Part shown: positions 12,046-64,000 of the stretch, in pieces
Position numbering within the stretch: the first letter of the stretch is position 1
Layout: each line of letters starts with the position of its first letter
Assembly: GCA_008632985.1 (NCBI GenBank)
Contig: QPGO01000240.1
Span: 1-64,000 of the forward strand
Source: Psammoneis japonica
Lineage: Eukaryota
Direction: 5' to 3'
Length of the DNA: 64,000 bases
Position numbers and translations under genes: made by a program
Notes under the pieces: model-generated
Database searches by the model: none
Seen by the model: the letters and a program-made list of their open reading frames with translations, nothing else
What the model was told of the DNA's origin: nothing

Positions 12046-12599
12046 GATGATGATAGTGGTGGCGGTGGTATTGTAGCGTTATTTAGACCAACAGCTGGTG
12101 GATTGGAATGCAAATCGAACGACAGTGATCAAAGTTCTTCTGTTCCCTCTGCATCCAACGCACTTTTTTCTGTGGCGCTGTGTCGTGTGTGCGCGCGAAT
12201 GATCAGAGGCAAAGTGAACCTATTCGATCTTGAATATCTAATAATTGTAATGTCTTACGAAGCTGAAGGTTGACATATTCAATAGCCTATCGCAATGATA
12301 AGATCTCTTTAGTTCTCAATTTAGATTCTCAACGGATCAAATTTATATGAATAACCTTTGATCACATATTACAGTATAAAAATACTTTATATCTTTACAT
12401 GTGTCACACACATACGGTACCGGTAGGTACATTCACATGATAACACGCGTTCTTCCAAAGTTTCCCGCCGACACAAGTGAGACTCCGACCGAGACCTCCC
12501 TCCAAAAAGGTTGCCAGTCAAACGGAATGACATTTAAGTCAATGGCCATGGCACAATGCCATGGCATCTGTGTAAATGCCATTTTCTTTGTAAGCTTTG

Positions 12600-15500
12600 T
12601 GCGCTTCTGAAACAAATTGTGGTTGTTTTGGAAGTGCTGCGCCAGGTGTGTGGTTTTGTGGAAGCTGCTGCACTCCACCTGGCTTGAGAAAAAAGTGGAA
12701 AAGAAAAGAAAAAACTCTCCTGTTGTCGACGGCTTGTCACAATCCACGCACACCTGCTGCCAGCTGGAGCTCCAGCTGAAAACTCCTCATTGCATTTTCA
12801 GTTTGCTGGTTGCTTGTCCCAGGCACTGGCACAGCATTGCATCATCAACATCACTCTTGGCATTTCACACTCTCATGATTTTGCGCGGGTGTGAGGAGAA
12901 AGCAGGACAGAGCTCTCTCAACAAAAGTCGCTTGACATTGTTTGCTGTCCAGGTGCTGAAGGTCATCAAATGGCTTGATTTTTGTTGCTGAGCTTGTGAG
13001 AAGCCATGCATGGACATGCATCAGAAAAGAGTTGTGGGTCTGCTGTGCACAAAATCATTTGAGCAAAGAGAGTGGCAAAACTCCTCCAAAACAGCCAGAG
13101 GCAGCTGCTGCTGCCATGCTTGCCAGATTGGTGGCAAGGCAAGAAAGCACCAGTGTCTTGCCAAAGAGGTGTGCAGCATTTCAGATGATGAGGCAAGCCA
13201 TTTCTTGAGAACAAAAAAGCTGCTCAAGCAGACACCGCTGATGCATTTTGCAGCTCATCTGGTGCAGAGGGAGCTCCGTGCTGTGCTCTGCATCACCCCC
13301 ACCAGAGGCCAATCAAGTTTTTTGTGCTTGCATGTTGTGGAATGCTCAGGTGTAAATTTGGTGGGAACCAACTGGGCAATGGCTGCCAGGTCCACAATTG
13401 GCTCGGGCAAGTGCGCAGACAGCGGCTGCCAAGTGGGTCAACAGATTTTTGACAAAGCTGTCTGAGATCAGGCTTTGCAGTTCATTTTCATTTCTCTGAA
13501 GAAGAGCAACAAGGTCACACACCTCCTTGTTTGGGGTTGACATGAGCGAAACCAGGTTTGTTTGGTTTTGGAGGTTTGGCTCTCTGAGTTGAAGCATCTC
13601 ATTTGTTTGCACCCCAGCTCAACAACAGCGTCACAATTCTTTGGTGTGGGCACACAACACACACTTGTGACACAAAGTCCTCAGGGGCAAAGGAGGGGTT
13701 GAGGAGGATCTTTTTGTTGGTTTTGCAAGCTGGGCAGTGTGTTCAAAATGACACGTGCATGTGTGCAATGGCAGGTTTTGCTGTGCGTGTGTGCACATGA
13801 TGATGAGAAAGAAGGCCCCCATGCTTGCATGGTGCAAAGGAGTGAAAACAAGAAAGAGTTGCCATTGTGTCATGAGAAACCCAGAGATTCTTGCAAAAGA
13901 GCAGCAAGCAGAAAAACAACCCACATCTGCTGAAACAAAGAGAAGCTGCAAAGTGGCAGAGCAAGCACTTTTTCTCCCTCTCTCAAAAAGTCCAGAGAGA
14001 GGAGTGTGTGTGAGCCACAAACGGAAGAGCTGTGCTGCAACCACACAAGCCTGGGTTCAGTGAAAAGAGAGGGTTGCTCACTTGCTCAACACAGGAGGCA
14101 CACCCAAAGTTTCAGGCAAAGGATGCAAATGAACCACAAGCAGTGCTCTCCATCTTGTTCTTTGAGTTGGGAGTGCACTCTCCAGCCCCCCAAAAGAGGG
14201 CTGGGACTCCATGGGATGTTGGGCTGGCAGAATTCCAAATGCAAGCTCTGCAATGACACACATGCTCACATGCTTGGAGCACATTTGTTTTTGGCTTGCC
14301 CAGGAGGTCTTCCCTTCTGACATTGAAGAAAATGTGCAAAACAGGGAGCAAAAAAATGTTTTGTGCAGGAGAGCACACATGGAAATTTGCCCACACAACA
14401 ACACACTCAATGCATTAAGATCAAAGAATGCTTTTGTTGCAGTTCAGCAGCACAAGGTCCAACCTGCCAACAGAGCTGGAGCAGACATTTGGCTGGTGAG
14501 GGTGGCAGCTCCATGCTCAGGAAATGGAGCACAGAATGGAAGCAGGAGCCTGGGCAGGTGCAGGAGTTGTGCCAGCCTTTGGTCTTGCAATGATGGCAAC
14601 AATCCTTGCTGTCAAAGTTGTGATGACTTTCATTGTTCTTTTCTTCTTCAGTCAGCTCCATGGCCAGGCCATTTCTCAGGAACAGGGATTTGAGAGAAGG
14701 CTTGCCAGATGTGTCTTTGTTCCTTTGCACTGTGAGAGCATTTTGCATCAACATCATTGCTCCATTGGTGCACACATGAGAGAGCCTCACCAACAGGAAG
14801 GTTTGGGGGCAGCTGGCCAAAAAGTGAGGGTGCTCACAGTTGTTGAAGCACAAATCACACACTGACAGCGCAAGGAAGAGGTGTGTGGTGCTTGTCTTGG
14901 GCAGTCATGCTGGGGCACTCGTCAGTTGACAATGGCAAAGAACAGCGCTCAATCTCAGAAAGAAAGAAGAGACCTCTTTGACAGAGGTGGCAGTCATGCC
15001 AATGGACCTTTCTGGAGCTTGAAAGTCTTGGCAAGGTGATCAAAAAGGGAGTCATGCTCCAACAGCAAAATTGGGGTTTGGAGAGCCTTTGTGTGAGGTT
15101 GTCGAAGAAGTCGGCAAGAACGAACATCTTGCCCTTCTGGTTTTGCAGATTGTCAAGTCTTGAGTGGCTGCCATGGGCAAGAGAGACAACTTCTCTGCCC
15201 ACATGCTCTTGTCCATCAACAAAGCCAGTGGCAATCTTGATGTGGTTGGCTGTGGTGGCCATCAAATGGCGAGAGTGGGTGGGGCTTCTTCCAAGTTGCT
15301 CTGCAGGGTTTTCATGATGATGATGAGGAACAGGGAACCACCCTGTCACCCAGGTTCACAAACCAGCCATTTTTTGTTTGCTTCTTTCTGGACTGGCTGC
15401 CAAGAGCTCTTGAGGAAGTGCTGGTCCTGTGGGCAAGACCACCTGGCTGGCTCAGGCTCCACATTGGGAGCCATCAAACATTGCATTGTGCCGCCTGTTG

Positions 15501-15770
15501 CTTGCCGCTGTTTGAGCTTCTGTGGCTGTTGAATGTTCTGTGTGAAAGTCACAGGCAGGTTTTGAGAGTTGCAGGATCAACAATTCTTGAGATGCGCCTT
15601 CCACATGCCAGTGCCACGAGTGCCAAGCGAGTGTGCTGCTGCTGTTTGGTTGTCTGTCAATCGTTGAGTTGATTGATTGGTCGAACACAAGGATGACGTG
15701 TCACCAAAAGCAAGGTCAGTGACCAGTGACAACAGGCAGCACTCAAATGCTCTTGTTGCAGCTGCTGGTG
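12600..15770. other. TpA- and CpG-depleted hypermutated block (degenerate repeat/TE or duplicated DNA)
   Basis: By eye only two TpA (about 13353 and 14416) in about 3.1 kb. CpG is rare and TpG/CpA abundant. All six frames hold short ORFs that are Cys/His/Gln-rich and nearly Tyr-free. Confidence 0.85.
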
Positions 15771-16052
15771 TTGGTTACACTCTATGGCAGATGATGAGAT
15801 TATGTGTGGAAAAGCTGAAAAGATGAGCTTCAGGATAAGTGAAGAAGAAAAGAGCGTGAAACCGCACTTTGCCCACTGTCGCACTGCAAGTAAGTGAGCG
15901 CGCCACTACTGTAAGAATCGCGCTGACGGCTGACGGCTCGTGCTGTGCGCTTCAGCATTCAGCATCTGTGTTGAAGCCATGAAGCAACAACAAGCGGCAC
16001 CGGATTTGACAGCGGTTCAATCCCATTCACTTTACAAAGTGTCACTTTAGAC

Positions 16053-16952
16053 ATGGATTTGAATCGAGTTCTAGCATCAAACGTTTTGGGTGAAAGCGGC
16101 AGCACGGATGAAGTTCGACGTGCACTTTTGCGCGGCGCCGATCCAAACATGGTTGTTTACTCCGCTGATGATTCTGCTCCAATCCCCATCCTCTGGGCTG
16201 TTGTTTCTTCGGGTGTCATGACCGATCGCAATGCAAAAGCCCAACTCTTGTTGGAAGCTGGAGCACGCGTGATGGATCGATTGTTTGGCCTGCCGCTGTT
16301 ACACGTTGCGTGTGATCACGGTTACTCATCCATAGCTCGCATGCTCGTATCGCACGGCGCGGCAGTCAATGACAAAACAGATGGTTTGACGCCGTTGCAC
16401 ATAGCTTCGATGAATGGCCATAATGATTTGTGTCTTTTTCTACTGCAGAACGGTGCTGGCGTGGACATGAAGACAACTGATGGAGCCACAGCTCTTCATT
16501 TTGCTGCAGGTTCTGGACACGCAGAAACAGCGCAAGTTCTCCTGGAGAATGGAGGAGCACGAGCCAGTGAGACTGACAGTGATGGAATGACACCCATGCA
16601 TTGTGCAGCCATTTCAGACAGTGAAGGTGTGGCCAGACTGCTGTTGGATCACGGAGCCGATGTGAACGCCAAAGACAACCACGATGAGACGCCATTGGAC
16701 ACGTCCATCAGAGTAGGCCGCCGTGCCGTGACCTCTGTCTTGATGGAAGCACATGGGCAGAAGCTCTTGGCACATGGCAACGTACATCCGGCACTCTGGG
16801 CCCATGTCTTGGCCAAAGTGGGTGAAAGGAGTACTGACATGTCCAGAGTGGGCATTGTTTACTCCTTGCTTGGTGAAAAGCCGGATCTGTTCAATTACAG
16901 GAATGCCGGAAGAAAGAGAAAGCGACCTGATCGATTTGTTCCTGGGGTGTGA
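16053..16952 (+). CDS. Ankyrin-repeat protein with a diatom-type C-terminal LWxxVL...EKPDLF domain and a basic NLS-like tail
   Basis: Ankyrin consensus repeats (GLTPLHIASMNGH, GATALHFAAGSGH, GMTPMHCAA, LLDHGADVNAKD). Tail contains RKRKRP. Confidence 0.9.
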   Translation: MDLNRVLASNVLGESGSTDEVRRALLRGADPNMVVYSADDSAPIPILWAVVSSGVMTDRNAKAQLLLEAGARVMDRLFGLPLLHVACDHGYSSIARMLVSHGAAVNDKTDGLTPLHIASMNGHNDLCLFLLQNGAGVDMKTTDGATALHFAAGSGHAETAQVLLENGGARASETDSDGMTPMHCAAISDSEGVARLLLDHGADVNAKDNHDETPLDTSIRVGRRAVTSVLMEAHGQKLLAHGNVHPALWAHVLAKVGERSTDMSRVGIVYSLLGEKPDLFNYRNAGRKRKRPDRFVPGV

Positions 16953-24964: not shown

Positions 24965-25170
24965 CCCTTTCTCTCGCTCGCTCGCTCGCTGGCTCTCTAT
25001 CTCTCTACTGTACTTGCTAGCTCTAGAGAGTAGCAGCAGCTAAGTAGCAGCTAGCTAGAGAGTAGAGAGTAGTCAGTTACTTTATCTAGACCTAGTAGAG
25101 TGGTACCGGCAGCTAGAGAGTAGTGGCTGTTACAGAGGTACAAGCAGAAAGGATCGACTCTAGAGAGCAG
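24965..25170. repeat. Low-complexity CTAG/AGAG-rich simple repeat
   Basis: A (TCGC)n run followed by repeated ctagagag/tagcagc/agtagag units. Confidence 0.6.
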
Positions 25171-25249
25171 CTGAGGCATCGTCTTCTGTCGATCGCATCG
25201 CATTGGCGACCAAGACTTGCTGTCCTGTCGCATGTGCATGCACCTAGAG

Positions 25250-26570
25250 AAGCTCTCTGTCATCTCGTCAACCAGATCCACTTGACCAAATGACCCCCCT
25301 CCTTTCCAAGTCCATCCACAGTCACGGGCAAAATTGTGAAATCAGTCAGACGAAGTGGCGCTGACAAGGATTTGGCTGCCGCAGACGATGACGCGAATTC
25401 AAAAGTCCGAAAGGAGCGAAATGACAATGGGACAGCAAAACAGGGCAAAAACGAGGAAAGAAGCAAAGAGAGTGTGGAGATGGATGTCGGGAGAACAAAA
25501 CACACATGTGCGCAGGTTGATGAGAAACGATTTCATCATGTTTGGGCAGGCTTTGCCATCACAGCTAGAAAGAAGCAACAGCGATTGAAACTTGAAACTC
25601 AATTAGCATCGCACGTGCTTAAAATGAGTGGCAGCAGTGGTGCCAGCTGCAAAGAGCAAGATGAGAAATGCTTCCATGCCCGTCATGTTGCACTCACAAG
25701 ACCAGACTCGGAAGGCGATTGTGTGCCCCAGTTGGATGATTCAGACGCCGAATCATCAGAGTCTTCACCGGTTCCTGAAACAAAAGCTTCGTTGTCAGCA
25801 TGTGCACCAAACGCTGACAAGTGTCATGATGTTGCATTGTTCATCACATTTGACTTGCCACCAACCTTCCAAATGCCCAGCTGCGGAGTTCCGTGCCAGA
25901 CACATTCAGGCTTCAACAAATGAGGGAGCATGCCCCTCACCCACATCAGCATGGACTGCTGAGGACCAATGCATGCCCAGGACATGGATTTGAGTGTGCA
26001 GTTGAACAAGATCACACCCTTGTGCATCAGAATGCTGGTGTGAATCGCGGGAGCCTGCTCATTGTGAAGCTGTTCGAGTTGCGCATCCGTTGCCCCTGTG
26101 CAGTTCTTGAGGTGCCCATCAATCGAATGCGTTCCCTTGTTGTCGCGCATGTCAAAGACTTCAGCCAACTCATCGAGTTTGACCACATCCACAGGCAATC
26201 TGATGTGCACATGGACGAGAGTCAAGAGATGCTCAGCCTTGAGCCTGAGCTTCTTGAGAGACACCTCATCATGTGCCAAGTCGGCAAGCAGGCGTTCCTC
26301 AAAGAGAGGATCTTGTGCTTCCACCTTGGCGTGCTCAAGGTCAGCGGCCATGACGGAGTGGTGCAGACGGTGTGTCTCTTCAAATTCCTTGTCATTGTGA
26401 CTGACAATCAAAGGTTGACCTGATTGAATTCTGGGAGTCATCAATGCCACTTTGCAGCAGCGTGAACCCTTGCCGATGTCTTCCTTCTTGCGCAGGATGG
26501 TGGTCGAAAGGCCAAGGTGCTGAAAGAGCACCAGAAGAAACTCGACACACTCGTGGTTGTCCCAAAACTT
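25250..26570 (-). pseudogene. TpA-depleted block containing a degraded coding sequence of unknown family
   Basis: No TpA seen from about 25625 to 26570. Minus-strand ORF 25824..26531 reads protein-like (DPLFEERLLADLAHDEVSLKKLRLKAEHLL) but has no Tyr and an excess of His. CpG is largely retained. Confidence 0.6.
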
Positions 26571-26890
26571 TAAGTTCTAGCAGCCCATGGTAGTACGGAG
26601 TTGCAATGACAACAAACAACAACTGCTCCCGACATCTTGTGAGCCGTCTTTGGTCATGAAAAGCATCCTTGCCACTGTGTTGGTTTTGACGACCTCAGAT
26701 CTCGCGAACCAATTTCCACCAACTTTAGGCGGTGTTGCTTTTCGGGCTGGCGAGAAACCTGGCCTGAAGATCTTGGCATCGTTCCCTGTTACATGCCAAG
26801 AAATTTCAATTAACACAAGTCCTATCGTTGTCAATTAGATGCGCTCCACTACTAAAATTACCAAATAACATACCCCCATTCCACCGCTCT

Positions 26891-49089: not shown

Positions 49090-50640
49090 GACTATTGGTA
49101 GAGAATAATTGTGGAGATCCTGAAAGCAGAAGTCTTTGAGGCTCGCACTCCTCCAAGATTGTCTACTACAATCGGAAGCGGCAGAGATTGTATATCAATA
49201 GAGATTGTTTGGAAGATGAAGTCGAGTGGATCCCCTCTAGAAGTAATACTGCTGCCATCTCGGTGAATGGTGCCCGCGGGCAATCTTTCGAAATGAATCC
49301 CAGCGGCGTCTGAATGTGCAGGTCGAAGCAACTGTGCGGGTTGCGCGAGAGTCTCTCCATATTATCTGTTATTGTCAGAGGCGAACGCAAGAGAACCAGG
49401 TGTAGTCGTGGACGAACTTCCTCTAGGCTATTATTTTGGTGGATGGTACCCACGGATTCTGTCTCGAAACGAGTCTGAGCGGCGTCACAATGTGTATGTA
49501 AGTCTCTCGATCCTCGGAGATTGTCTGCTATAGTCGGAAACGAAGCGAAGTAAGAGAGCCAGGTTTAGCGCTAGAGCTTGACAAGTGGATGAATGGAGCG
49601 GCTTTTCTCGGAAAAATGCTGCTACCATCGTCGTGAACTGTGCGAACACAAGAGAGCCAGTTTAAGCAATAAAGATTCAATGGCGGATGGACTCCCTCTC
49701 GGCTACCGTTTTGGTCGTGGTACCCACGGATCCTCTTCGGAATTCAGTTCGAGCGGCGTCACAAAGTGTATGCAAGTCTCTCGATCCTCGGAGTTTGCCT
49801 GCTATTTTCGGAAGCGAAAGTAAGAGAGCCAGGTTTAACGATAGAGCTTGACAATTGAATAAGTTGAGCGGCTTCTCTCGGGACAATTCTGCTGCCATCG
49901 TAGTGAACGGTTCGGATGAAATTCGACGGTTCCTCTCTAGAAAATACTGCTGCCATCTCGGTGAATGGGACCCGCCGAAAATCTTTCGGAATGAATCCCA
50001 ACGGCGTCTGAATGTAAAGCTCGTTGCAACAGTACCGGGTACGGGAGTCTCTCAATATAGTCTGTTATTGTCGGAAGCGAAGACAAGATAGCCAGGTTTA
50101 GCAATAGAGATTCACTGACGCGTGAAATTCCTCTTGGCTGCCATTTTGGTGATGGTACCCACGATTTCTGTTTCGAAACGATTCCGAGCGGCGTTACCAT
50201 GTGTCCGCAAGTCGCTCGATCCTCGCAGAGATTGTCTGCAATTCGGAAACGAAAGTTAGTAAGCCAGGTTTAGCGATAGAGCTTGACGAGTGGATGAATG
50301 GAGCGGCTTCTCTCGGAACAACGCTGCTACCATCGTCGTAAACGGTTCGAACACAAGAGAGTCAGTTTTAGCAATAGAGATTGATTGGCGGATGAACTTC
50401 CTCTCCGCTACGATTCCGATCGGCGTCACAATATCTATGCAAGTCTCTCGATCCTTGGAGCTTGTCTGCTGTAGTCGGAAACGAAAGTAGAAGAGCAAGG
50501 TTTAGCGATAGAGCTGGACAAGCGGATAAATTGAGCGGCTTCTCTCGGAAGAATGCTGCAACCATCGTCGTGAATGGCTCGAAACGAATCCTTGCTGCGC
50601 CATACTGTGTAGCTCGAAGCAGCAGTACGGAGTACAATTG
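49090..50640. repeat. Degenerate tandem repeat array with ~700 bp higher-order duplication
   Basis: The unit aagtc(t/g)ctcgatcc..cggaa(a/g)cgaa..aggttta(g/a)cg.tagagct..gagcggctt recurs at about 49500, 49774, 50209 and 50441. The block ctctagaa..tactgctgccatctcggtgaatgg recurs at about 49235 and 49935. Confidence 0.85.
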
Positions 50641-57098: not shown

Positions 57099-58059
57099 AT
57101 GGTGGCATTAGCACCGGACGCGGACACATCAGCCGTGCCAGAATCAGACAAAGCGTGCAAGCGAACCATTTTAAAAAGATGCGTTCGTCGTATAGTGGTA
57201 CTTCCGCGCTTCCTGAGCGCATCTACGTCTCATGATGCTTGGTTGCGAGGAAAACCATCCTTACGGCCCTTCCGAACACACTGCGGAAATGTTCCTGTCC
57301 ATTATCTGTAGAACATTGGAACAGAAACAGGAGGAATGTGATTGGATCGTAACAATTTCCGTGTACAGAGTCCAGCTGTTTGATTACCCTCAATCGGAGG
57401 AGGAGTGGGACAGCTACGATGGAATTTTGTTGCCAGGATCTTTATCGGGAGCTTACGAAAAGAAGGAATGGATAGAAAAGCTTTGTAACGTTATCCCCAC
57501 GGAAATACATGGCAAGAGTCGCAAAACATTGGGTGTTTGCTTTGGTCACCAGGTGTACGCTCATTCATTCTCCGGTGGCCAAGCTACCAAATGCCCCGCA
57601 GGACTTCAGACGGGACGACGCACTGTCTCCTTGACAGCAGAAGCAGCAAAAATCTTTGCAGAAGAAAGCGCTCTCGAATTGCTCTTTACACACGGCGACA
57701 TGGTGCAGCGCCTACCCGATTGCGCTGTTGCATTGGGAGAAACGCAAGCTGTCCCCGTTCAAGCTGCAGCATATTTTAGATCTGCACGGGAGAAAGAACT
57801 GTTTTTGTCGACAAATGAAGAACAGAAAAGACCACGACCAATTGCCATTACCTTTCAGGCTCATCCTGAATACGCTGATCAGGAACTAGGGGTGAACCAA
57901 ACACTGAAACCAATTTTGGAGAAGTTTGTAAAAGGCGGGGAAATGACTCTAGAAGAAGCGGAATCGACACAGCAGGATGTGTCAGACAATTATGCCACGG
58001 TAGAGAATCATAGTTTAGATGTCATGAGGGATGTTGGAAGGATATTTGGGTGGTTCTAG
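57099..58059 (+). CDS. Class I glutamine amidotransferase-like protein (frame break near 57216-57231)
   Basis: YDGILLPGS, nucleophile elbow LGVCFGHQ, HGDMV, and FQAHPE (Cys-His-Glu triad). Confidence 0.85.
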
Positions 58060-58419
58060 GAACAGTCCGTGATCGAGGGAAAAAAGGCTACAATTGCCAT
58101 GATGATTGATTTTCATCCATTCCATTGGCACAGACACTTATGCCGCATCCAGCAATAGAATTCTTAGTGTTGTTTTAGCGAGTTTGTTCCCCCCAGCTCT
58201 CTACTCTAGCTAGACAGCCGCAACGCACATGTTTGATGTGAATGGCACCGCTCTCAACTCTCTTCACAAGTCACAGGTGAGCAGTGGTTATACTAAGTGC
58301 AGAGTTAAAGAGCCCATTGGGAATGTAAGGGAACAGCAGAAGGAGGCACAGAAGCAGCTGTAACAGCGGAATAGCAGAAGGGATGTACAACACAGCATGC
58401 AGGGCATTTAGCAAAAGGG

Positions 58420-61130
58420 GCAGGAGATCAGTCAGTGCAGAGGGAGGAGGCAAAACAAAGAGCATGCATGGAAAGATGATGCACAAGGTTGCACCCAAGT
58501 GTTTGAACAGCCCATTGGGAGGGAGAAGCAGTGTGATGGGGGCTGCCAAAGCAGTTGCTGGAGAGACAGTTCCAGGCAAAATCAGCAGAGCAGAAGGAAG
58601 GAGGGTGGAAGGGGAGGTTGGGGCACAGAGAAAGGCAGAAAAAGAAGCACCTGAGTTGCGAACAGCAGAGGAGGAAGACCAGGGAGGCTTGGGTGCAGGT
58701 GGGTGAGAGCACAGAGCCAAAGAGAAATCAATGGCAAAAGAAGCCAAGGCCACCAAGATGGTCAAAAGTGAAGGGAACCAACAAGAGAGGAAGGAAGAAC
58801 AGACAGGTGCAGCAGCTTGCACTGGGTGGCAATGTGGCATGGGCATCAGATGCAAGCTGAGAGCTCAGGAAGTGGCAGGGGAGGGAGCAAAGAGGGAGGC
58901 TGGTCAATGAGGAGAGAAGAGATGGCAAAGAGCCCTGCACATTGAAGGAAGGAGGATCAGCAAGAGCAGCAGCAGCAACCACATCCTGCCAATGTCATGG
59001 CAGAGATGGCATGCCAAGCTGGAAAGAGCTGCTGTGGAACCTGTGCCAACAACACCGTGCAAGGCACAGACGGTTCTGGCAGGCAATGCAGCACGAATGC
59101 CACTGAAGTTGAGGGATGTGCAGCTGCTCACCTGACAGAGGGCAGGGCTCACAGCAGCTCAAAAGATCCAAGGACATTCTCATTGTTGCAAGAAAGCCCA
59201 AAAGCAAGTGAGAAAACACCCGCTGTGGCAGTCATGCACTCCATTGGAGTCCCTGATGCCGGGTCAGCAAGAACAAGAGCAGCTGTCATGATGTTCTGTG
59301 CCCCCACATTTCCTTGAAAAAAGTGCTCAAGCTCTCTGCTTCTGCACATGATGTTGGCAAAAGAAAGGTCACTTGAGCAACTCACCTCTTGCCATGCAGC
59401 CTGCTGTGCTTGTGCAAAGAGAAACTCATCAGATGTGCAGCCACCACTGCCTTGCCAGCAAAAAAAAAACTCAAACCCAAATGTTGAGTGCTTTTGCACC
59501 TTTGCCCAGCAACACCATTGCAGGCTCCAACCCACACTTCCAGCGCACCCTGCTGGGGGTGCAGCAGAAGTTTTCATGCAATTGGTCGCTTGGTGCACCA
59601 CTTTGCAGAGTGGCACACACCAGAGACAACCAGTTGAGATGAATTGCACAGAAATGAGACTGTTGTTTTCTTTTTAAGAGGGTGTGCCAGAGCACCCAAA
59701 CTGCCACAGCAAAGGAGGACAATCACACCAAGAAGAGGGCGCAAAGTCAGCACAAACTCTGAAAGAAAAACCTTGCTTCCAAGGATGAGCATTGTCTTCA
59801 ACAAAGACTGACTCTGGGTTTCACAGTTGTGTGTGCCAAAACAAAAACAAACCATTTGCCACTCAGAGGAGTGGCAAGGTTGGCAGGCCAACAGGGAGAA
59901 GATGGGGTGTTCAGAACTTGCAGGTGTGAAATGAGGAGCCTTGATGATGGTGATGAGAAGGACATTGGAAGCAACATTGTTCTCATGCAGAATTGATGTT
60001 GAATCTTGCACAGGTGTGCAAATCTGCACAGCAAATGGATGGTTGTCAGGTGGCGCCAATGGCTCATCCAAATGAGCACTTGCAAGCACCACAGCAGGGG
60101 CAGAGCTGTCACCACGTGAGGCAAAGAAGAAGGACTTGAGCAGCAGGCAGGAGAAAAAGAAACTGTTGTGGGCTGACGCCGGGCATGGATGGAAGATGGA
60201 AGATGATCACATCAAAGACATTGTGGTCATTGGGGTGGGCATTTCTGAAACACATGGAACTTGCACTGGGTCCTGTGCAGAAAATGCACCAAATCTGCAA
60301 AAAATTGCTCAGTTGGACAACAAGCATGCAAGCCACAAGGCATCAATGCCAGTTGTTTTTCACTGAAAATTGTTGTGCATTGTGCTGAAATGAGGGTGCG
60401 CCAATGACAGAAATGGTCAAAAGGGTGTCAGGGGAGGACACAGCAAAATGCCATCTGAAAAGGGTGATGTCAGGAAGTGTCTCGCCAGCAGAGCCCATGT
60501 GCTGCAGCTTTGCGGCCAAGGAGAGAAGCTCCCAACCTCTGGAGCACCTGTGGCACCTGGCTTCCAAGCTGGTGACAGGGTGGCCACAACCAACAGGGGG
60601 GCACTTCTCTGTTGGCAGGCTTTGAACGGGGCATGTTGACACCCAGATGCACTCGAAAATCCTGCAGCTGAGAGGGCATGTGNNNNNNNNNNNNNNNNNN
60701 NNNNNNNNNNNNNNNNNNNNNNNNNNNNNNNNNNNNNNNNNNNNNNNNNNNNNNNNNNNNNNNNNNNNNNNNNNNNNNNNNNNNNNNNNNNNNNNNNNNN
60801 NNNNNNNNNNNNNNNNNNNNNNNNNNNNNNNNNNNNNNNNNNNNNNNNNNNNNNNNNNNNNNNNNNNNNNNNNNNNNNNNNNNNNNNNNNNNNNNNNNNT
60901 GTTCCTTTCAAGTCACACTTTGCAGCTGTTGTGGGGCAGAGCACCGCATCCCTCCACCACCAGCAGTTGGGCCAGATCAAAGTGATGAAAGCATGGCATC
61001 TCACCACTTCATTGACCCAGACAGCTGGCAAAAAAAAAAAGAGCTCTCTCCTGAAGAGAAAAGGAGTGGCATTTGAAGTGTTGACTTTTCATTGCACAGG
61101 TGACATCATCTTTGTAAAAACTGCCAGTTG
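58420..61130. other. TpA- and CpG-depleted hypermutated block (unrecognisable degenerate repeat/TE DNA)
   Basis: TpA falls off over 58270-58420 and is then nearly absent (seen at about 59675 and 61115). CpG is rare. Many spurious Cys/His/Gln-rich ORFs. Confidence 0.85.
60683..60899. other. Assembly gap (217 N)
   Basis: Run of N characters. Confidence 1.
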
Positions 61131-61315
61131 TTTTGGAAAAACCGTCATCGTCATCAGCTGCACTGTGTGCAGAACTGCAAATGCCAATGTCAGAAGAAGT
61201 GCGCACGGCTTTCCCAAAGACCATTTCCGTGCGCGTCTCGAACCCTGTCTTTTTTGTCGTTCGCTCAAGAGATTCTGGATTCACATTGCTTTTTCTCAAC
61301 AAGACAAAACCCAAA

Positions 61316-63306
61316 ATGAGAAAGAAAAATGAAGCCAATGCACGAATGATTGTCGGATGCGTCGGATTGGTCTCTTGCATGGTGAGAGAGGCTTCGGCTT
61401 TCACCGCCACAGACCCAAGAACTTTTGTTGGGAGAGCGATGCTGCCGGCACCCTGCCAGCGAACCACAGAGATGCGCCGGTCTTACATTGGCGCGAAGCC
61501 AACCCGCGAAGCTGTTGAGGAGGCAGTCGGACAAAGCGACAAAGTCAATCCAAACCCCCAGGATCATGGGGTGTTGCAAGGCTTGCCGCACAAGAGTCCT
61601 GCCGATTGCAGCAGCTGCGCCTGCCAAGTGCAAGACGAGAAGCTCCAAGCAAAGCTAGAGGTCTCACTGAGCCGCGTGCATGTCCTCTCTTCCTCATGGA
61701 AAAGGCAGCTGAGACATTGGGGGACCAGCTCCACATCCTTCGATTGGGAAAGTTGCCGTCAATGGTGCAATCGCGGAGACAAAGGAGAAGTTGGTTATTT
61801 TGGGCACCGGCTGGGGAGCTGCTGCCTTGCTGAGCGAGATCGACAATGATCGCTACGACATCATGGTTGTCAGTCCACGGAACTGCTTTTTGTTCACTCC
61901 CATGCTCGCAGGTGCCAGCGCAGGCACTGTGGACGTTCGCAGCATTGCCCAACCTATTCGAGAGGCCGTTGATTTGTTTGAAAAAGAACAGTGTTCTTTC
62001 CAGAACATTGATGCTCACTGCACACGCTCTTTGCCATTCTGTTTCTCCCAGTTCAATCGACAAGCCAACACTTGGAGGCAGCCGCATCCTCTGTCGACAC
62101 CGACACTCGAATTGTAAATTGCCAAGGGGTGCAATGCCACGAGGAATGCGAGATTACAGACATTGAAGTCAAGTGTGATCGGCTTGTGGTGGCGGTCGGA
62201 GCGAGTGCCAACACATTTGGCATCCCCGGTGTCGAGGAGCACTGCCTCTTCCTGAAGCAGATTGGTGATGCAAGGCACATTCGTCGCAAGATTGTCAGTT
62301 TGTTTGAAAGAGCGAATTTTCCCAGACAGTCGGAACAAGAGCGTCGCAAACTGTTGACCTTTGCCGTGATTGGTGCTGGTCCAACTGGCGTTGAATTCAC
62401 AGCGGAGCTTCGAGACTTTGTCAAACAAGATGGACCAAAGTGCTGTCCCCAGTCACTCAAAGACGTTCAAATCAAGGTCATTGAAGCAACACCAGTGATT
62501 CTGAGGCCATTTGATGAGAGCTTGCGAGAAACAGCAATGAACGTGCTTACTCGCGGCATCAACATTGAGGACCCAGCTCGCAGAAGTTTATTCCCAGATG
62601 AATTGACTGAGCTGGTCCTCAACAAGCCTGTCAAAGAAGTGACCACCGACACAATTGATCTTGCAGATGGCTCAGAAACACCTCATGGCTTGGCAGCATG
62701 GGCCGGCAGTGTCGGACCTTTGCCCATTGCACCAGACATTGTTGAGGCGGTTGGTGGCGGACAAGTTGAAGCACAAGAAACGGCTCGCGGAAAGCTTGCG
62801 GCAGATCCGTGGCTTCGAGCCGTGGATGGCAAAGGCAGCATCTTTGCATTGGGTGACTGCGCCTGCATGCAAATGGCTTGCTTGCCGAGCACCGCCCAAG
62901 TCGCTGCTCAAGAAGGCGAGTTCCTTGCTCACGTTTTGTCCAAGGCCAACCTCAGTGCAGAGCACAGTGACGAGGGTGTCATGTTGCCGCCCAAACGTGA
63001 CCCGGAGAAACCCATGAGCTCAATGGATGTGATTGCTTCCTTTGGCGTCCAGACGGATGAGTGCATGGCTCCGTTCCAGTTCCTCGACATGGGCATTTTG
63101 GCATGTGCTGGTGGCTTTTCAGCGCTTGCGCAGGTTCAGGTGACACCAGACGAAAAGACATGCGTCAAGGCCCTGGAACCGTTGGATTTGGTCCATGGAG
63201 AAGCGCGCATTTGATGAAACAAGCATCCATGAGGAATCGCGCTCTTGTGGCCATTGACTGGGTCAAGTCACGTCTCTTTGGGCGTGACATTGCCGCCATC
63301 GACTAG
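61316..63306 (+). pseudogene. Hypermutated copy of a plastid-targeted type II NAD(P)H dehydrogenase (NDH-2)
   Basis: Signal peptide plus ASAF motif (61391-61402). Motifs VILGTGWG, SPRNcFLFTPML, cDRLVVAVGA, TFGIPGV, VIGAGPTGVEF, FALGDCA, PSTAQVAAQEG, WRSAhL, LFGRDI. Probable intron about 61965-62051 with a GC donor, several frameshifts, and conserved Tyr replaced by Cys/His. Confidence 0.9.
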
Positions 63307-64000
63307 ATGCCGCAACTGCTGATTGCATCATGAAAGGAACAAGAAGAACGGCAGTTTTGTGTGACTTGCTTTTTTGGGGTGGTGCAGAAAGACAAGCGGC
63401 ACGGGATTGCCGTCGGCGATTTTCACCCATGTTTGCATGGAAATGTGTTTGGAATGAAGTGAAGCTTGCCACCAGGGAATAAGCAGCGGCTTTCAAGAGC
63501 AGTTTCATCAGTTGGACTTGTGCATGTTGTGCGCATGCGTGTCCGTGTCATGCAGAATGTAACCTTGTGCTGCACACACGAGAAAAGTTGGATGAAAAGA
63601 GAAAACGCAATGCAGCACACAGCGCTCGTGCACAGCAGGCCTTGAAAAGCTCCTGGATGGCCGATTGGGCCATGCTCCCGGGCGGCGCCAAATCGCTCAA
63701 ATCGCTTGAACAGCTCCAATCGTCACTTCAGCAGTGGGCTCCTGTTCGCCGCGATGTTCTCATGCAGCCGACCAGCTCCATCTGATTGCCAATGATGCAG
63801 AGCCATCTGATCAGGTCAAGCAACACATGTCCATTGAGACCACTCATTGCAAGTTCGCAAAGTCAACAGGACATGGAAATCCTTGGCGCAGCACTCCAGT
63901 CTCAGCAGCACAGCAGCATGCTTGTGCAACTCGCGGTGCATTTTCAAGATTGCAGCAAGAGCCTTGACTGTCCTTTGTGGTTCTTTTGAGCATGGAAGAA

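Follow-up and report, generated by a model that had tools for sequence, protein, structure and literature searches.

Introduction

The right-hand end of a 64,000-nucleotide stretch of the genome of the diatom Psammoneis japonica (GenBank assembly GCA_008632985.1, contig QPGO01000240.1, positions 1 to 64,000 of the forward strand; hereafter the window) raises the question of how DNA can lose almost all of its TpA dinucleotides when one part of it has lost CpG as well and the next part, which carries a type II NADH dehydrogenase (NDH2, or NDA) gene copy with frameshifts, has kept most of it. An initial annotation of this locus proposed that TpA is removed by a process separate from, and faster than, the decay of methylated CpG. 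We find that the feature is real, and that it is a variant of a barely described TpA-erasing process, now in a diatom. It is probably the product of two chemically separate mutation clocks acting in the same silenced domain, which the young gene copy joined late. Among the literature matches listed, the only account of a TpA-rewriting signature is a preprint on Bigelowiella natans, whose supplements may hold CpG data, and none reports TpA erasure in a diatom, subscription journals lying outside the scope of that search. The preprint describes conversion of TpA to TpG or CpA at ~1000 times the background rate in integrated DNA of nucleocytoplasmic large DNA viruses (NCLDV) as well as virophages, in some lineages only (bioRxiv 10.64898/2026.01.13.699255).

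Results

Two depletions with different borders

Relative to positions 26600-58200, which serve as the background for dinucleotide counts (TA observed/expected ratio, o/e, 0.56; CG o/e 1.03), the gene-dense window (~48% GC) contains three TA-free blocks with sharp edges and normal adjoining genes, and the rightmost of these, 58420-64000, holds 14 TA where ~203 are expected at the background rate. When o/e is computed separately for the two dinucleotides their depletions differ between the parts of this block: both are missing from 58420-61130 (TA 2, o/e 0.01; CG 19, o/e 0.12), as initially annotated, whereas 61130-63300 has nine TA (o/e 0.07) and 117 CG (o/e 0.77). The latter, CpG-retaining part does not end at 63300, as had been supposed, but reaches 64000, with three TA (o/e 0.07) and 31 CG (o/e 0.68) in 63300-64000 and 12 TA (o/e 0.07) and 148 CG (o/e 0.75) in 61130-64000 combined. 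Its CpG content contrasts strongly with that of the core at 58420-61130 (Fisher p = 5e-21), and the annotated abundance of CpG holds with the qualification that this part is mildly depleted relative to background (p = 0.013).

Change-point analysis places the TA edge at 58428, with the final TA at 58409, the left CG edge at ~58251 (range 58088-58282), and the inner CG edge at 61143 (range 61090-61202). TpA was thought to fade gradually over 58270-58420, but the drop is abrupt: nine TA (o/e 1.10) are still present there, and CA is already raised (2.23). When the window is divided into 250-nt tiles free of N (n = 254), 213 are normal, 20 are low in both dinucleotides, 20 are low in TA only – part of these being noise in ordinary coding DNA – and one is low in CG only. 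The other two blocks lie at ~12600-15776 (TA-free, CG o/e 0.18) and at 25170-26571 (TA-free, CG o/e 0.54 in 25550-26550), and CpG o/e over the four TA-erased stretches forms a graded series of 0.75, 0.54, 0.18, and 0.12. The features of the locus (Table 1) were compared with X1, X2, and X3, public runs from one sample of one study, whose status as DNA is a guess.

Table 1. Features of the TpA-erased locus and its left neighbour.
Feature	Position	Strand	Remarks
Diatom type II NADH dehydrogenase (NDH2/NDA) gene copy, frameshifted	61316..63306	+	Putative ATG 61316; TAG 63304-63306
Intron of the NDH2 copy, 87 nt	61965..62051	+	Starts with GC instead of GT; TA-free; X2 record 13 joins across it
Young part	61143..64000		TpA erased, CpG mostly retained but decaying; reaches window end
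Old core	58410..61143		Without TpA and CpG; relic with multi-copy repeat fragments; N gap 60683-60899
Single-copy DNA past the duplicated segment	63506..64000		TA-erased; CpG drops again toward window end
Left border strip	58251..58410		CpG-poor, TA kept; high-copy 50-70 nt motif at ~58295-58362
Class I glutamine amidotransferase gene, intact	57232..58059	+	Unmutated left neighbour and control; Pfam PF00117, E=1.4e-8; 36 TA/kb; 3.3% Tyr

A host gene copy rewritten at TpA

The gene in the CpG-retaining part has a Pyr_redox_2 domain (Pfam PF07992) and closest relatives annotated as NDH2 or NDA; diatom NDH2 homologues are up to 67% identical to it among the matches listed, those with a name being diatom proteins, tblastn frames agree, and a quick tree (43 of 61 rows) groups it with homologues P0003 and P0004. 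It lies beside the core with its multi-copy fragments, which bears out the suggestion of a host gene neighbouring an older repeat. The copy is a pseudogene, with frameshifts near 61726, where there is a one-base indel, and near 63173, and probably a third upstream of 61640. Its putative N-terminus (61316-61405) has a hydrophobic stretch followed by ASAF, which we take to resemble the plastid-targeting motif of diatoms.

A single Tyr survives among 514 aligned codons of the copy, and 10 of the 13 columns in which Tyr is the majority residue among the best 60 homologues read Cys or His. The exons hold eight TA and 80 CG where host coding DNA predicts 44.4 and 88.3, respectively, which places exon CpG at 91% of the host coding level; the intron has no TA (6.6 expected from base composition), and the leader and 3' untranslated region (UTR) are TA-erased in the same way. 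At 239 conserved columns, defined as those that 80% or more of the best 60 homologues share, there are 26 departures, of which 15 are TA-type, four CG-type, and seven other; with intron-adjacent columns dropped, 24 departures remain at 237 columns (15 TA-type, four CG-type, and five neither). Random change would give a TA-type share of 4% (p = 2e-15 for the observed 15/24), and the same classifier applied to the genes of seven relatives yields 0/88. TA was thus originally present in the copy and then rewritten. Within this one gene, TA has been lost at 15 of 16 informative sites in conserved codons and CG at 4 of 39 (Fisher p = 5e-9; both counts miss synonymous outcomes), in keeping with the proposal that the TpA process is the faster one. 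The outcomes of the TA-type changes on the coding strand are nine TG and six CA, without strand bias (p = 0.61).

The homologue locus L004 (1-2898) has a CpG o/e of 0.53 with normal TA. No TA-free gap longer than 272 nt occurs in the seven metagenome loci with 46-60% identity to P0003.

Recency of the changes

A sequence in X2 (record 13) is 87.4% identical to the NDH2 gene and is joined where the gene has its intron, from which it would appear to be a spliced transcript of an NDH2 paralogue. Homology to this paralogue spans the 5' leader to ~63505, and three of the listed sites (61695, 61715, and 63021) still read TA in the paralogue. An intact NDH2 paralogue is not among the 120 protein matches listed, no X2 contig matches at 90% or more over 58180-64000, and X3 gives no match, results that carry no information on expression. 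The X2 spectrum comprises 113 G>A plus C>T differences against 60 in the reverse direction, an excess of 53 that is near the ~42 TA estimated to have been lost, and ~10% divergence between the NDH2 copy and the paralogue remains unexplained by TA. By a rough estimate, ~26 unexplained departures at conserved codons would be expected had the copy been dead throughout this divergence; only five, attributable to neither process, are seen at the 237 conserved codons. The copy was thus probably functional until recently, which sustains the view of the CpG-retaining part as a younger target.

The same locus in X1, representing a second allele, diverges from the window by 0.29% across the flank; the figure rises to 0.38% for the core and to 1.33% for the young part. 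The same-locus contigs differ at 18/1357 nt in the young part versus 9/2341 in the core (p = 0.002). Of the 19 listed events in 61000-64000 that set every X1 contig apart from the window, CpG transitions make up 13 (null share 6.6%; p = 8e-12) and TG/CA doublets two; there is one TA>CA change, at 63021, and the remaining three are of other kinds. X1 record 8, alone in being complete over the young part, has CpG changes at three of seven events (p = 0.006). Since the listed allele differences are mostly CpG transitions, CpG decay is under way in the young part. The two losses, annotated as uncoupled, are so in chemistry and speed but not in place, since the part that retains CpG is itself undergoing CpG decay. 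At 63021, TA is present in X1 and lost in the window allele, and this private TA>CA change suggests recent activity; TA erasure would then have been nearly, not fully, complete when the alleles split. Because it still differs between alleles, TpA erasure has probably been recently active and could be studied in culture. In 61637-61739, three distinct X1 contigs show mixed sharing of differences, one of them without the frameshift at 61726, a pattern that suggests that there is a third copy, or that the paralogue is present beside two alleles.

The core, its flanks, and other blocks

The N gap annotated within the core is indeed present. In bins 58170-58871 and 59340-60509, summed X1 depth is 347-2841 versus 59 in the flank, and 225 of the 393 aligned X1 contigs are <90% alike; the core thus contains old dispersed-repeat fragments, between which the DNA is apparently single-copy. 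A six-frame Pfam scan of 58270-60682 (stops as X) identified no families, Rfam gave no matches in 57900-64000 at E<=0.1, a mutation-aware codon model found no steady coding frame in the core, and no convincing terminal repeats were found. From its dinucleotide content, the core appears to have been silenced long enough for both decay processes to finish, and, at a constant CpG rate, its age would be ~7 to 21 times that of the young part. In the old blocks 12600-15500 and 58420-61130, AAT/ATT, ATC/GAT, TCA/TGA, and ATG/CAT are in deficit (0.58-0.73 of simulation), and AGC/GCT, CTC/GAG, and GCC/GGC are in excess; these trinucleotide skews may reflect weak A>G activity at steps other than TpA, or the composition that the repeats had to begin with. 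The remaining CpG are enriched in CGC/GCG.

The left border strip has one CG versus 9.0 expected (P = 0.0013) together with nine TA, its CG-poverty is equalled in 2 of 2575 overlapping 160-nt background strips, and it is the end point of many X1 contigs. Its high-copy short motif also terminates one 6537-nt X2 contig. TA-rich strips flank the two other blocks (12250-12440 and 24980-25170), and such TA-keeping strips beside blocks may be boundaries. At the opposite end, 63506-64000 has an X1 depth of 60-66, with a single contig (X1 record 8) extending 3924 nt past the window; it contains one TA versus 28.1 and 22 CG versus 33.9 expected from base composition, and CpG declines again from ~63800 (CG o/e 0.33 in 63801-64000). 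Pfam matches in 63300-64000 are sub-threshold only. The NDH2 copy may lie between two nucleation centres.

The TA-free block at 25170-26588 offers a parallel: it covers a dead host-type gene on the minus strand, with its start at 26588 and an early Trp codon that is now TGA. This gene has relatives up to 44% identical (HMMER) and no Pfam family; a word-based search with its open reading frame among longer proteins found nothing, although the HMMER search did find relatives. The gene start and the TA edge (26571) coincide, half of the CpG has been lost, and six of ten departures are CG-type. Because no transposon is recognised beside this block, silenced genes may themselves be targets. Block 12495-15900 has lost both TA and CG. 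The ankyrin-repeat gene at 16053-16952, in which TA and CG are somewhat low and a 273-nt TA-free gap is present at 16441-16714, may be partly erased. A diverged tandem repeat array at 49228-50583 (76-86% identity) has normal TA and CG, and repetition alone is thus insufficient for erasure.

Discussion

A simulation combining TA erasure with CpG decay reproduces TA, CG, CA, and TG in both parts of the block, and the ratio of -ln(survival) between TA and CG is ~7 for the whole young part and 17 for the exons. The first clock converts TpA to TpG or CpA (A:T to G:C) on either strand and runs fast to near completion, and the second, ordinary CpG decay, converts CpG to TpG/CpA at a rate roughly 7-17 times slower by -ln(survival); 5-methylcytosine, an established cause of such decay in diatoms, would drive it. 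The NDH2 copy would have been a working duplicate until a silenced domain recently spread over it, starting either in the old core or in a repeat that lies outside the window, after which its TA sites would have been erased and frameshifts gained, with CpG decay just starting; a paralogue elsewhere would supply the NDH2 function. Since the leader, intron, 3' UTR, and single-copy DNA are all erased, and strand-symmetrically, the target is a chromosomal domain and not a transcript or RNA intermediate or a paired duplicate. Surviving TA are found in the TAA/TTA context in 14 of 18 cases versus 37% in the background (p = 5e-4), and neither AA (1.12-1.19) nor TT (1.37-1.38) is depleted (background 1.16 and 1.14, respectively), a combination more in line with an enzyme than with an error-prone polymerase. 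The first clock could well be the work of a TadA/ADAT2-type enzyme that deaminates adenosine to inosine (A-to-I) in DNA and is recruited to chromatin that is silent and probably CG-methylated, the inosine being replicated as G; an ADAT2 homologue is proposed for B. natans in the preprint, which obtains its rates from mutation-accumulation lines (Mettrop et al., 10.64898/2026.01.13.699255).

Simpler accounts were rejected. CpG decay alone leaves a TA o/e of 0.46 in simulation, and the initial proposal of a separate TpA process stands. RNA editing followed by reverse transcription is at odds with erasure of the intron and flanks and with the absence of strand bias, and plain codon bias with the 21-40 TA/kb of host coding DNA.

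The two losses could be linked if deamination of methyl-CpG triggered long-patch error-prone repair that mutates nearby TA. Polymerase eta-like repair operates in somatic hypermutation, and the WA motif of polymerase eta includes AA and TT. Both losses do occur in the same blocks, CpG decay is found wherever TA is erased, and CG alone is low in only 1 of 254 tiles; but TA is 82-94% erased where exon CpG loss is only ~10%, AA and TT keep the frequencies given above, and the preprint reports AT>GC at 6.85e-7 versus GC>AT at 3.9e-9 in a hypermutable NCLDV region of B. natans (bioRxiv 10.64898/2026.01.13.699255), such that we consider this coupling improbable. We would also be surprised if the NDH2 copy had been captured by a transposon (Helitron or Pack-type), or been dead since duplication, and mutated as cargo. 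There is a paralogue that is homologous from the 5' leader as far as ~63505, the copy adjoins repeat fragments, and capture at the DNA level would keep the intron as well, yet there are just five unexplained departures at 237 conserved codons despite ~10% non-TA divergence of the copies, convincing terminal repeats are lacking, and erasure extends into single-copy DNA past the duplicate. The seven fetched relative loci show no convincing match to the window beyond the NDH2 gene among the matches listed (60 rows).

Targeting and timing might be the same and the lesion lie on T, as an oxidised or modified thymine in TpA pairing with G, not on A. All counts fit equally well, and A>G is indistinguishable by sequence from T>C on the opposite strand because TpA is self-complementary; we nonetheless think a T lesion rather unlikely, as A-to-I deamination of DNA by an ADAT2-type enzyme has precedent in a published account (PMC10354150), and an enzyme of this type is the candidate in the B. 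natans preprint. There is very little likelihood that the CpG-retaining part is unmethylated and no younger, its TA eraser being independent of methylation. This would accommodate exon CpG at 91% of the host coding level, as well as a B. natans text without mention of CpG in its main part and a target there with little GC>AT change, but it sits poorly with CpG transitions at 13 of the 19 listed allele events against a null of 6.6% (p = 8e-12), and with the few unexplained departures at conserved codons, which point to recent loss of function. An assembly or base-calling artefact at modified bases is barely credible: an N gap does lie inside the block and a relationship between X1 and the source sample is conceivable, but X1 contigs, which were assembled separately, are 99.6% identical to the window over the core and 98.7% over the young part, with the same choice of TG or CA at nearly all sites, and the edges coincide with gene borders.

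Several points weigh against two clocks in one silenced domain. Methylation, silent chromatin, and the enzyme are all inferred from the DNA sequence. Purifying selection until recently is argued from a rough expectation (26 versus 5) and a partial paralogue sequence; the allele table covers 40 of 597 places, chosen by support and not as a random sample; and some X1 contigs may be the paralogue rather than an allele, the depth suggesting two to three copies. At the left edge, CpG loss begins ~160 nt outside the TA edge, the reverse of a nested pattern. CpG loss, with one decay rate assumed, is the sole measure of the age of the core, and the two-clock simulation fails to reproduce the GpC excess and ApT deficit of the old blocks.

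What this locus adds is a host-gene victim, a within-gene comparison of rates, and an allele-level sign of recent activity. TpA erasure emerges as chemically distinct from methyl-CpG decay, faster than it, and able to overtake and cripple a host metabolic gene copy, and the TA/CG pair offers a two-speed clock for dating the silencing of a DNA stretch. Should the enzyme be a naturally occurring, chromatin-targeted DNA adenine deaminase, it would be of wide interest. In ascomycetes, repeat-induced point mutation (RIP) makes TpA from CpA in the sexual cycle, through RID/DIM-2; it alters the two members of a duplicated pair and leaves most single-copy DNA untouched. More tentatively, diatoms and chlorarachniophytes might share an ancient 'reverse RIP', in which a DNA adenine editor acts at silenced CG-methylated chromatin, reaches past repeats, and irreversibly inactivates redundant copies of host genes. 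If so, TpA would be erased within the time scale of within-species polymorphism, and the process would be a gene-loss engine in which slower CpG decay dates each silencing event.

RIP is itself named as an analogy in the text of the B. natans preprint (10.64898/2026.01.13.699255). The process described here resembles it in producing dinucleotide-specific, near-saturating transitions in repeat-associated regions that spill into neighbours, but the direction is opposite, with TA depleted and CA/TG enriched; moreover, the paralogue keeps TA at three listed sites (in a partial difference table), and single-copy DNA at 63506-64000 is erased. Diatoms are described as having DNMT5-dependent, CG-methylated transposon islands (PMC9998398), and their normal mutation bias is given as GC to AT (PMC6604790), the opposite of TA erasure. 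Methyl-CpG decay shares with this locus an enrichment of CpG transitions (13/19 listed allele events; core CG 0.12), but in simulation it cannot remove TA.

The closest parallel is with B. natans as the preprint presents it. Here the host is a diatom, erasure is near-complete (o/e 0.01-0.07 versus an NCLDV Rho of 0.45), and the victim is a host metabolic gene copy, which is not foreign DNA, beside a core that is repeat-like; CpG decay overlaps TA erasure, the main text of the preprint mentioning neither 'CpG' nor 'diatom'; and rates were measured there, whereas only relative rates are derived here. In both systems, A:T>G:C transitions are confined to TpA (15/24 departures here versus 0/88 in controls), the lost TA is balanced by a gain of CA/TG, and both outcomes, TpG and CpA (9:6 here), arise on both strands. 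In both, too, the change is regional and the remainder is spared, as in the three sharp-edged blocks of this window, and single-copy DNA can be affected.

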